The notes under the pieces are model-generated. The model saw nothing but the letters and a program-made list of their open reading frames with translations. It was not told where the DNA came from and did not search any database. Below, piece after piece: positions 7,137-7,241 of a stretch of 64,000 bases of DNA (its first letter is position 1; every line of letters starts with the position of its first letter). Location: IMG/VR virus record IMGVR_UViG_3300005578_000001, positions 17,813-81,812 of that record. One strand, given 5' to 3'. A program made the translations under genes and the position numbers. The DNA comes from a virus.

Positions 7137-7152
7137 TAGCTTCTACTGGTCG

Positions 7153-7241
7153 CGGAGGACATGGGAATCGAACCCCACCGCGCGAACGGACCCTTTGGAT
7201 GTAAATTCCATTTACGTGCGCCAGCACAAGGGATGTCCTCC
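7153..7241 (-). tRNA. allo-tRNA-like gene, 9/3 fold, anticodon UUA (possibly a pseudo-tRNA)
   Basis: 9-bp acceptor GGAGGACAT/ATGTCCTCC, D arm GTGC-TGGC-GCAC, anticodon arm TGGA-ATTTACA-TCCA, long variable arm, 3-bp T stem GGG-TTCGATT-CCC, G discriminator. Confidence 0.8.

Follow-up and report, generated by a model that had tools for sequence, protein, structure and literature searches.

An allo-tRNA-like gene carried by an IS1-like cargo transposon in a phage genome, and a GUA codon signal in the genes beside it

Why should a phage genome contain a tRNA-like RNA placed between a TAC operon and a transposase operon, and what might such an RNA read? We considered this question for an RNA of 95 nt located at positions 7147-7241 on the minus strand of the window, by which we mean the whole 64,000-nt stretch of DNA analysed here; the source record is a virus genome of 81.8 kb that has terminal repeats. 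A first-pass annotation of the same DNA had described the RNA as an allo-tRNA-like gene with an ochre (UUA) anticodon, forming the last element of the TAC operon. On the basis of its fold, its covariation, an Rfam match and its genomic context, we regard the RNA as an allo-tRNA-like gene that is maintained by selection, borne by a transposon and linked to the core of that transposon, with the TAC genes beside it as cargo, and we give this reading of its identity and context a probability of about 0.85.

Fold and conservation of the RNA

On the minus strand, the acceptor stem consists of nine base pairs between GGAGGACAU (7233-7241) and AUGUCCUCC (7154-7162), of which five covary among homologs. 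The D arm, UGUGC-UGGC-GCACG (7215-7228), has a tetraloop containing G18 and G19, and all five of its pairs covary; the anticodon arm, UGGA-AUUUACA-UCCA (7196-7210), which is also supported by a comparison of loops, has a 4-bp stem with covariation at three pairs; the extra (variable) arm, CCGU-UCGC-GCGG (7178-7189), covaries at three of its four pairs; and the T arm, GGG-UUCGAUU-CCC (7163-7175), has a stem of 3 bp, two of which covary. Beyond the four standard pairs of the anticodon stem, only conserved A.A or A.G oppositions are found. The loop AUUUACA comprises A32, U33, UUA at positions 34-36, C37 and A38, such that the canonical triplet UUA corresponds to 7204-7202 and a shifted triplet, UAC at loop positions 35-37, corresponds to 7203-7201. 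An invariant CCC (7230-7232) could pair with an invariant GGG (7191-7193); neither triplet ever varies, and together they may form a sixth helix of the RNA.

The TAG stop codon of the SecB-like ORF occupies 7245-7243, so that C7242 is the sole spacer between this ORF and the RNA. At the other end, G73 is followed by the trailer CGACCA, and CCA therefore does not directly follow G73. The start of the RNA 1 nt past the SecB-like stop codon, the 9-bp acceptor stem combined with a 3-bp T stem and a long variable arm, the atypical A32 and C37, and the lack of a directly encoded CCA had all been described in the first-pass annotation, and each of these descriptions was borne out. ARAGORN called no tRNA anywhere in the 64,000-nt window, and the sole Rfam match in the 3-kb region 6000-9000 was to tRNA-Sec, with 29.7 bits (E = 0.004) compared with a gathering score of 47. 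A comparison with Sec models had been proposed in the first-pass annotation as a check; the match extends over the full length of the RNA, and its score is below the gathering score.

We found 21 homologs of the RNA in metagenomes and Acidobacteriota genomes by three routes: loci obtained via the SecB-like protein, species genomes scanned for a sequence pattern, and Acidobacteriota genomes scanned with covariance models; four of the 21 are in Pyrinomonadaceae or Pyrinomonadales assemblies. Neither a protein search nor two DNA patterns revealed a relative in viral contigs, and none was found among cultured phage or plasmid records; a protein scan of genome contigs gave no match, and scanning 151 genomes of the class yielded no further member. 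In an alignment of 18 sequences, eight close and ten more remote, which was fitted to the fold model, 97.4% of the cells pair and two-sided changes occur in 18 of the 28 pairs. The first-pass annotation had made its case depend on covariation of the stems in homologs, and every one of the five cloverleaf stems covaries across these 18 sequences; none of 500 shuffles matched the observed score, and sliding the stem partners abolished the signal. RNAalifold, run without guidance, gave the same fold, together with a -1:73 pair and the invariant CCC:GGG pairing. The alignment contains many G.U but few A.C pairs, in agreement with the minus strand. The tRNA-like gene is thus confirmed as real and conserved, by virtue of this comparative evidence and not of single-sequence folding, the energy of which was unremarkable (z = -1.48). 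In the single-sequence fold, a CCCUU:AAGGG helix encloses the D and anticodon hairpins; this five-pair helix was rejected because the CCC:GGG part alone is conserved. A rival hairpin, GUAAAU-GGA-AUUUAC, was also rejected, being perfect in the window only, where there is an extra A, and not conserved in the homologs.

The helix can be extended to position -1 (C or U opposite G73, in 15 of 18 sequences) and, in the clade of the window, also to -2; the actual 5′ terminus and the count of 9/3, which assumes RNase P cleavage before G7241, are accordingly deduced. Eight close homologs are identical throughout the segment between the acceptor stem and the extra arm, except for one D-loop base and the extra A of the window, and compensatory changes are already present in the acceptor stem and the extra arm. 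With the same two exceptions, RNA positions 9-55 are 100% identical in elements whose transposases are 63-92% identical. In the family as a whole, U33, U34 and A38 hardly vary and positions 35-37 vary jointly (UAC, AUC, CCG), C37 is present in every UUA, CUA and UAU member, and the ‘amber’ relative (L037) retains UAC. The weak 31:39 pair is A-U or G.U in 15 of 18 sequences. The extra arm of 4-7 bp and the 5-bp D stem with its UGGY loop both covary.

To which class of tRNA might this RNA belong? G73 is present in 17 of 18 sequences, and acceptor pairs 1-4 (G-C, G-C, A-U, G-C) are nearly invariant and, like G73, identical to those of the host tRNA-Ser; three of these four pairs never change, the fourth covaries from G-C to A-U in two of 18 sequences, and pairs 5-8 covary more freely. 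Because of these tRNA-Ser-like pairs, G73 and the extra arm, we read the RNA as a serine-type tRNA, and on the best reading it would belong, as a member of serine type, to the class of allo-tRNAs published by Mukai et al. (Nucleic Acids Res 2017, PMC5389517). CCA is encoded after G73 in no family member, so CCA addition would be required; it is encoded in all 11 genuine host tRNAs that were checked. A promoter and terminator scan found neither signal near the RNA or between the convergent units, and at a rearranged locus (L048) no sigma-70-type promoter for the RNA was found. The only good promoter upstream of the RNA is that of the TAC genes, TTGACT-16-TATAAT (8647-8620, minus strand). Given that the RNA lies behind the SecB-like gene and has no promoter or terminator of its own, co-transcription with the TAC genes is plausible. 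By the simplest route, the copy in the window would be transcribed by read-through from the TAC promoter, excised by RNase P and a 3′ endonuclease, supplied with CCA by the CCA-adding enzyme and, judging from its acceptor pairs, charged by SerRS.

The transposon and its exchangeable cargo

The RNA lies within a cargo transposon of 6.26 kb that is inserted in the phage and occupies 3798-10078 of the window, including 9-bp target duplications. Its left terminal inverted repeat, GGTAGTGTCCTAATCTGA (3807-3824, plus strand), agrees with the right one (10052-10069, minus strand) at 18 of 18 positions, and the inverted ends are 95% identical over 22 bp; the target duplication CAGTTTCGG is found at 3798-3806 and 10070-10078. 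We had looked for inverted repeats directly around the block of transposase and RNA, where there are none, the real ends lying 2-3 kb further out. Between the ends are a gene pair (proteasome-like and 148 aa), the transposase core, the RNA, the TAC genes, two XRE genes and small membrane proteins. A second complete copy (L011), with its own repeats and the duplication ACTTCCGCC, is present in a Pyrinomonadaceae genome. The element is a passenger in the phage, and not a recoding system for the phage. A perfect 19-nt direct repeat (3283-3301 and 12143-12161) brackets an 8.9-kb region that contains the transposon.

The transposon core begins with an IS1-like DDE transposase gene (5832-6671, plus strand), which contains a single GTA codon at 6315-6317 (V162). 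The Pfam model DDE_Tnp_IS1 matched it with 28 bits (cut-off 24.1) across a stretch of 37 residues only, and the NCBIfam model transpos_IS1 gave 43.8 bits against a cut-off of 100. The element resembles the IS1 family in these IS1-type HMM matches, in its short terminal inverted repeats and in its 9-bp target duplication; unlike members of that family, it encodes the transposase in a single ORF of 276-279 aa without the InsA/InsB′ frameshift, has two further genes (ORF105 and an RHH gene) after the transposase, and carries cargo and a tRNA-like gene inside its ends. ORF105 (6668-6985, plus strand) encodes a conserved core protein of 105 aa that has no Pfam or NCBIfam family match; its confidently predicted structure (pLDDT 86), a generic alpha/beta fold, matches just generic cystatin-like folds with Z of about 5. 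The RHH (RelB/NikA-like) regulator gene (6957-7136, plus strand) is convergent with the RNA. It overlaps ORF105 by 29 nt (6957-6985), within which there is an A-rich run, AGAAAAAAGG, and it is read in the +1 frame; in one other locus (L010:1662-2165), ORF105 and RHH are fused into one ORF of 168 aa, and a fusion made by frameshifting or slippage may also occur in other loci. The transposase promoter, TAGACA-17-TACAGT, lies with its flanking repeats at 5759-5809 on the plus strand; these are two direct repeats, TTYCGTAGTAC (5759-5769 and 5796-5806), that are conserved in all homologous loci and are likely operators of the RHH protein. In the window the RNA is followed by CTATCA (7135-7145), the reverse of the TGATAG double stop of RHH; the same sequence is found 3′ of the RNA in rearranged loci lacking a convergent RHH gene (L048:1597-1603). 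In another Acidobacteriota genome, a group II intron (Rfam 122.9 bits; L082:794-1426) adjoins a broken transposase core.

On the opposite side of the RNA are the TAC genes, all on the minus strand: a gene for a SecB-like chaperone (7243-7821), the TAG stop of which abuts the RNA; a gene for an HTH (HigA-like) antitoxin (7822-8280), whose TAA stop immediately precedes the SecB-like ATG; and a Gp49/HigB-like toxin ORF (8244-8672), the real start of which is probably near 8600. Is the RNA linked to these genes or to the core? When the proteins neighbouring the RNA in the window were searched with tblastn against all RNA loci, the transposase, ORF105 or RHH genes were found beside the RNA in 19 of 22 loci, two of which (L046 and L048) are rearranged, with the RNA divergent from the transposase. 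The TAC genes are upstream of the RNA in only five of the 22 loci and absent from the other 17. The genes that abut the 5′ end of the RNA are variable, among them TAC genes, a HARE-HTH protein gene, a P63C protein gene and an HTH trio, and cargo differs even between elements in which the RNA and its flanks are at least 90% alike. For example, the XRE gene, ORF105 and the transposase of the window are 90-93% identical to those of L006, whereas the TAC proteins are only 49-63% identical. The core of the RNA is identical between elements with TAC and non-TAC cargo. Because variable cargo thus stands beside a constant association of the RNA with the transposon core, the TAC genes are exchangeable cargo, and the RNA marks the border between the transposon core and that cargo. 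In one locus (L005:737-843), the T arm of the RNA has given way to a transposon inverted repeat, the TAC genes are kept and all core genes are deleted; the locus is a deletion derivative, in the pattern of an IS-mediated adjacent deletion. In a subset of loci (L012, L018, L036 and L039, approximately 130 nt upstream of the RNA, and L034), two conserved long hairpins and a protein of 230-310 aa (weak DUF5343 match) precede the RNA and stand in for the abutting cargo.

The description of the RNA as the last element of the TAC operon therefore requires qualification: it does adjoin the SecB-like gene and co-transcription is plausible, but it is not a part of the TAC system. The same first-pass annotation had suggested co-occurrence with TAC loci as a check, and the counts given above speak against it, as does a locus with TAC genes and without the RNA (L008). 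Its suggestion of a decoy RNA for the HigB toxin found no support. An RNA dedicated to the TAC system, as a suppressor, stability element or toxin decoy that co-evolves with HigB-HigA-SecB, would account for the orientation of the RNA, which is the same as that of the TAC genes, for its position against the TAC stop codon in five loci, and for its presence in four of the five metagenome loci obtained via the SecB-like protein. We nevertheless consider this explanation very improbable, in view of the 17 RNA loci without TAC genes, L008, the truncated RNA of L005 and an RNA core that is the same with or without TAC, while the TAC proteins differ by 37-51% where the transposases are 92% alike.

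A GUA codon signal in RNA-bearing elements

Which codon, then, might the RNA read? We observed a GUA signal in the RHH and transposase genes that is tied to RNA-bearing elements only. In the RHH genes of these elements, GTA accounts for 44 of 54 valine codons, compared with one of 13 in RNA-less sister elements and with a background of 16% of valine codons in 160 ORFs; the contrast between the two groups of RHH genes gave a Fisher value of 1e-6, which is inflated by relatedness, since related genes were counted as independent. All five valines of the RHH protein in the window are encoded by GTA (6978-6980, 7014-7019, 7032-7034 and 7083-7085), and RHH valines that have arisen in single lineages are also GTA. 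The possibility that GTA is a DNA motif and not a codon was ruled out by counting the trinucleotide in each frame of the RHH genes, which gave 44 occurrences in frame and 12 and 3 out of frame.

In the transposases of RNA-bearing elements, GTA makes up only 12 of 223 valine codons, and ten of these 12 lie in one alignment column, that of V162 (nt 6315-6317 in the window); these transposases have exactly one GTA each, in the same column in 10 of 11. Outside this column, GTA accounts for two of 213 valine codons in RNA-bearing elements versus 12 of 81 in RNA-less elements (p = 6e-6, again inflated by relatedness). The RNA-less transposases have two to four GTA codons at other sites, and GTC, ATC or AAT in the fixed column. 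These RNA-less elements were obtained in an ORF105-based scan, which revealed ten core loci without any tRNA-like RNA; in three of them (L076, L078 and L081), the right inverted repeat lies 10-45 nt past the RHH stop codon, and with neither RNA nor cargo they constitute a minimal IS. In the transposase tree, the RNA-less elements fall between two RNA-bearing groups with a weak backbone, a topology compatible with either one or two events of RNA gain or loss. Neither ORF105 nor the cargo genes are biased towards GUA, and ORF105 is the same in this respect in RNA-bearing and RNA-less elements. Since GUA makes up 16-24% of valine codons in host-derived loci, the window included, and in the phage, it is not a starved codon.

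This signal points to UAC at positions 35-37 as the working triplet, with A38 as its 3′ purine, in place of UUA at 34-36. We put the chance that the RNA reads GUA via UAC, and not UAA via UUA, slightly above even, on a pattern of codons and conserved loop bases. Against the GUA reading, a triplet at positions 35-37 of a 7-nt loop is non-canonical and would require opening of the 31:39 pair or an unusual loop. Further points against it are that the anticodon stem has four pairs only and that CCA is not encoded. Among the other triplets of the family, the loci with CCG (L034) and AUC/UAU (L035) have no core genes in their neighbourhood and give no information on the loop frame. The UAU relative (L035) agrees with the canonical frame, as in the allo-tRNA(UAU) group that has been published, and no single frame rule is therefore established for the family.

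An ochre anticodon would predict a role for UAA codons. TAA is an ordinary stop codon here: among 89 stops of phage ORF proxies, TGA is found in 35, TAA in 32 (36%) and TAG in 22. Reassignment of phage stop codons was thus rejected, as TAA and TAG together end 54 of the 89 ORF proxies. A read-through fusion of HigA and SecB was also rejected: in the window the HigA-like TAA is followed directly by the in-frame SecB-like ATG (7819-7827), but this junction is peculiar to the window copy, and the homologs have TAA-A-ATG, out of frame. The intact transposases contain no in-frame stops, and we found neither a conserved in-frame stop nor a product of read-through. ORF105 ends with TAA or TAG in 15 of 17 homologs, a conservation that arises because the overlapping RHH frame fixes this stop. 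The ‘ochre anticodon’ of the first-pass annotation does not agree with this usage of TAA, with the invariant C37 or with a codon signal that concerns GUA and UAC instead of UAA and UUA, and the RNA is probably not an ochre suppressor.

It could nonetheless be supposed that a serine-charged ochre or amber suppressor, with UUA at 34-36, permits low-level read-through of UAA (and UAG) to the benefit of the transposon or the TAC genes. The canonical 7-nt loop does place UUA at these positions after U33, (9/3) allo-tRNAs with a UUA anticodon have been published, as have variants that worked in E. coli when switched to a CUA anticodon (PMC5389517), and ORF105 mostly ends in TAA or TAG. However, decoding tRNAs have a purine at position 37; an efficient suppressor would be costly, because TAA and TAG end so many phage ORF proxies; each of the candidate read-through sites fails for the reasons given above; and the GUA signal is left without explanation, so that suppression seems to us unlikely. 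An extra valine tRNA would explain the same GUA signal in another manner: ValRS would recognise UAC, and the RNA would supply GUA decoding to GUA-rich genes in the manner of bldA, without miscoding. A35 and C36, the main identity elements for ValRS, speak for this reading, but acceptor pairs of tRNA-Ser type, together with G73 and the extra arm, indicate SerRS, GUA is not starved, and the purge of GUA from RNA-bearing transposases suits a harmful reading more than a helpful one. We hold this possibility to be improbable, a little more so than suppression.

The RNA might also decode nothing. As a tRNA mimic, it could be excised by RNase P and RNase Z so as to end the cargo mRNA at its stop codon and shield the convergent transposase operon from antisense RNA, a form of tRNA punctuation, and its conserved sequence could also serve as a homology patch for the exchange of cargo. 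Such a role would fit the spacing of 0-10 nt between the end of the cargo ORFs and the RNA (window, L006, L007, L009, L010, L011 and L013), the lack of a promoter or terminator between the convergent units and the diversity of cargo among elements with at least 90% similarity in the RNA and its flanks. A simple terminator would suffice for this purpose, though; SerRS-type acceptor pairs, tertiary partners in the D and T loops and a nearly invariant loop are all kept; in addition, L046 and L048 have the RNA elsewhere, divergent from the transposase, and the in-frame GUA signal is not explained. We judge a non-decoding mimic to be rather unlikely, although it deserves more weight than suppression. 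A decaying, functionless pseudogene derived from a tRNA and hitch-hiking in the transposon is scarcely credible: damaged copies do exist (the acceptor stem of L010, G33 and stem mismatches in L018, and the truncated L005), and six allo-tRNA(UAU) variants reported in PMC5389517 showed no activity in E. coli with a CUA anticodon, but there are compensatory changes in all five stems and positions 9-55 of the RNA are nearly identical where the transposases have diverged.

A possible codon-based switch and its relation to known systems

How might a GUA-reading RNA act within the transposon? We propose that it would decode GUA in the transposon’s own mRNAs, such that the amount of RNA would determine how much GUA-rich repressor is made, or how sound it is, and would do the same for the transposase by way of one fixed GUA. 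A codon-based switch of this type would tie the control of transposition to transcription of the cargo operon. An all-GUA repressor together with a transposase purged of GUA fits a harmful or switching reading, with Ser inserted for Val, better than the mere supply of a tRNA, and from these codon counts we infer a preference for the former. Insertion of Ser for Val at GUA is, however, a tentative proposal that we would expect to fail more often than to hold. The same caution applies to the complete model, which is one possibility among several: the transposon would re-read GUA in its own repressor and transposase by means of a tRNA with a serine body and a displaced valine triplet, in a programmed mistranslation in which cargo transcription would set the level of the tRNA, and this level would switch repression and transposition. 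Under such mistranslation, the repressor, with all its valines encoded by GUA, would be maximally sensitive, the transposase would have been purged of GUA except for one control site, and the cargo operon in the present element would be the stress-responsive TAC operon.

The allo-tRNAs with a 9/3 structure were described from Acidobacteria in 2017 (PMC5389517; reviewed in PMC7609411), and their proximity to toxin-antitoxin and transposon genes has been noted in print (PMC5389517, PMC7609411). Our RNA shares with them the 9-bp acceptor and 3-bp T stems, a Sec-like D stem with a tetraloop, a long extra arm, G73 (where G73 or U73 is expected) and an acidobacterial origin, and its UUA-type loop is among the published anticodons. 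It departs from the published description, with which it was compared, in the four standard pairs of its anticodon stem, where a longer stem is described, and in its invariant C37 and invariant CCC...GGG. The class of RNA, a loop of UUA type and a loose association with toxin-antitoxin and transposon genes are thus already known; new are the mapping of the transposon, the controls that lack the RNA, the fingerprint of GUA codons and the evidence for a one-base shift of the working triplet. PMC5389517 describes neither a defined transposon, with ends, duplication and core genes, nor a codon link to the genes of an element, and our literature search found no publication that joins an allo-tRNA and a transposase.

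A displaced triplet has a precedent in the irregular G-1 ‘tRNA1’ of acidobacterial polycistrons, in which the cognate GUG lies at positions 35-37, HisRS charges the tRNA, and the codon of the canonical frame is not decoded in E. coli (PMC5389517). The resemblance consists in a cognate-looking triplet at 35-37 instead of 34-36; tRNA1 has a 7/5 or 8/4 structure, G-1 and His identity, whereas the present RNA is 9/3, with a putative Ser-type identity, and has UAC. If the shift is true, the anticodons of allo-tRNAs may have been misread by one base, and the published picture of ‘stop’ and ‘missense’ anticodons would change. The locus supplies a defined vehicle for an allo-tRNA, an IS1-like cargo transposon with mapped ends that is also intact in a host genome. 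The RNA-less sister elements provide natural controls, and the GUA fingerprint tracks the presence of the RNA, so that the purpose of an allo-tRNA becomes an experiment on one codon, a small repressor and one transposase residue.

Two further tRNAs invite comparison. The bldA tRNA-Leu(UAA) of Streptomyces is a canonical chromosomal tRNA whose codon is genuinely rare and which delivers its cognate amino acid; as may be the case here, one tRNA governs a few regulatory genes that carry its codon, but the present RNA is transposon-borne, its codon is not rare, and its Ser body and Val triplet disagree. Bacterial tRNA-Sec (RF01852), the best Rfam match, is similar in its long acceptor stem, 4-nt D loop and extra arm; the RNA differs from it in its score below the gathering threshold, in an acceptor/T branch of 12 bp (13 bp if the -1:73 pair forms) arranged as 9/3, and in having no UCA anticodon. 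The host genomes also hold a separate, genuine tRNA-Sec gene with an encoded CCA.
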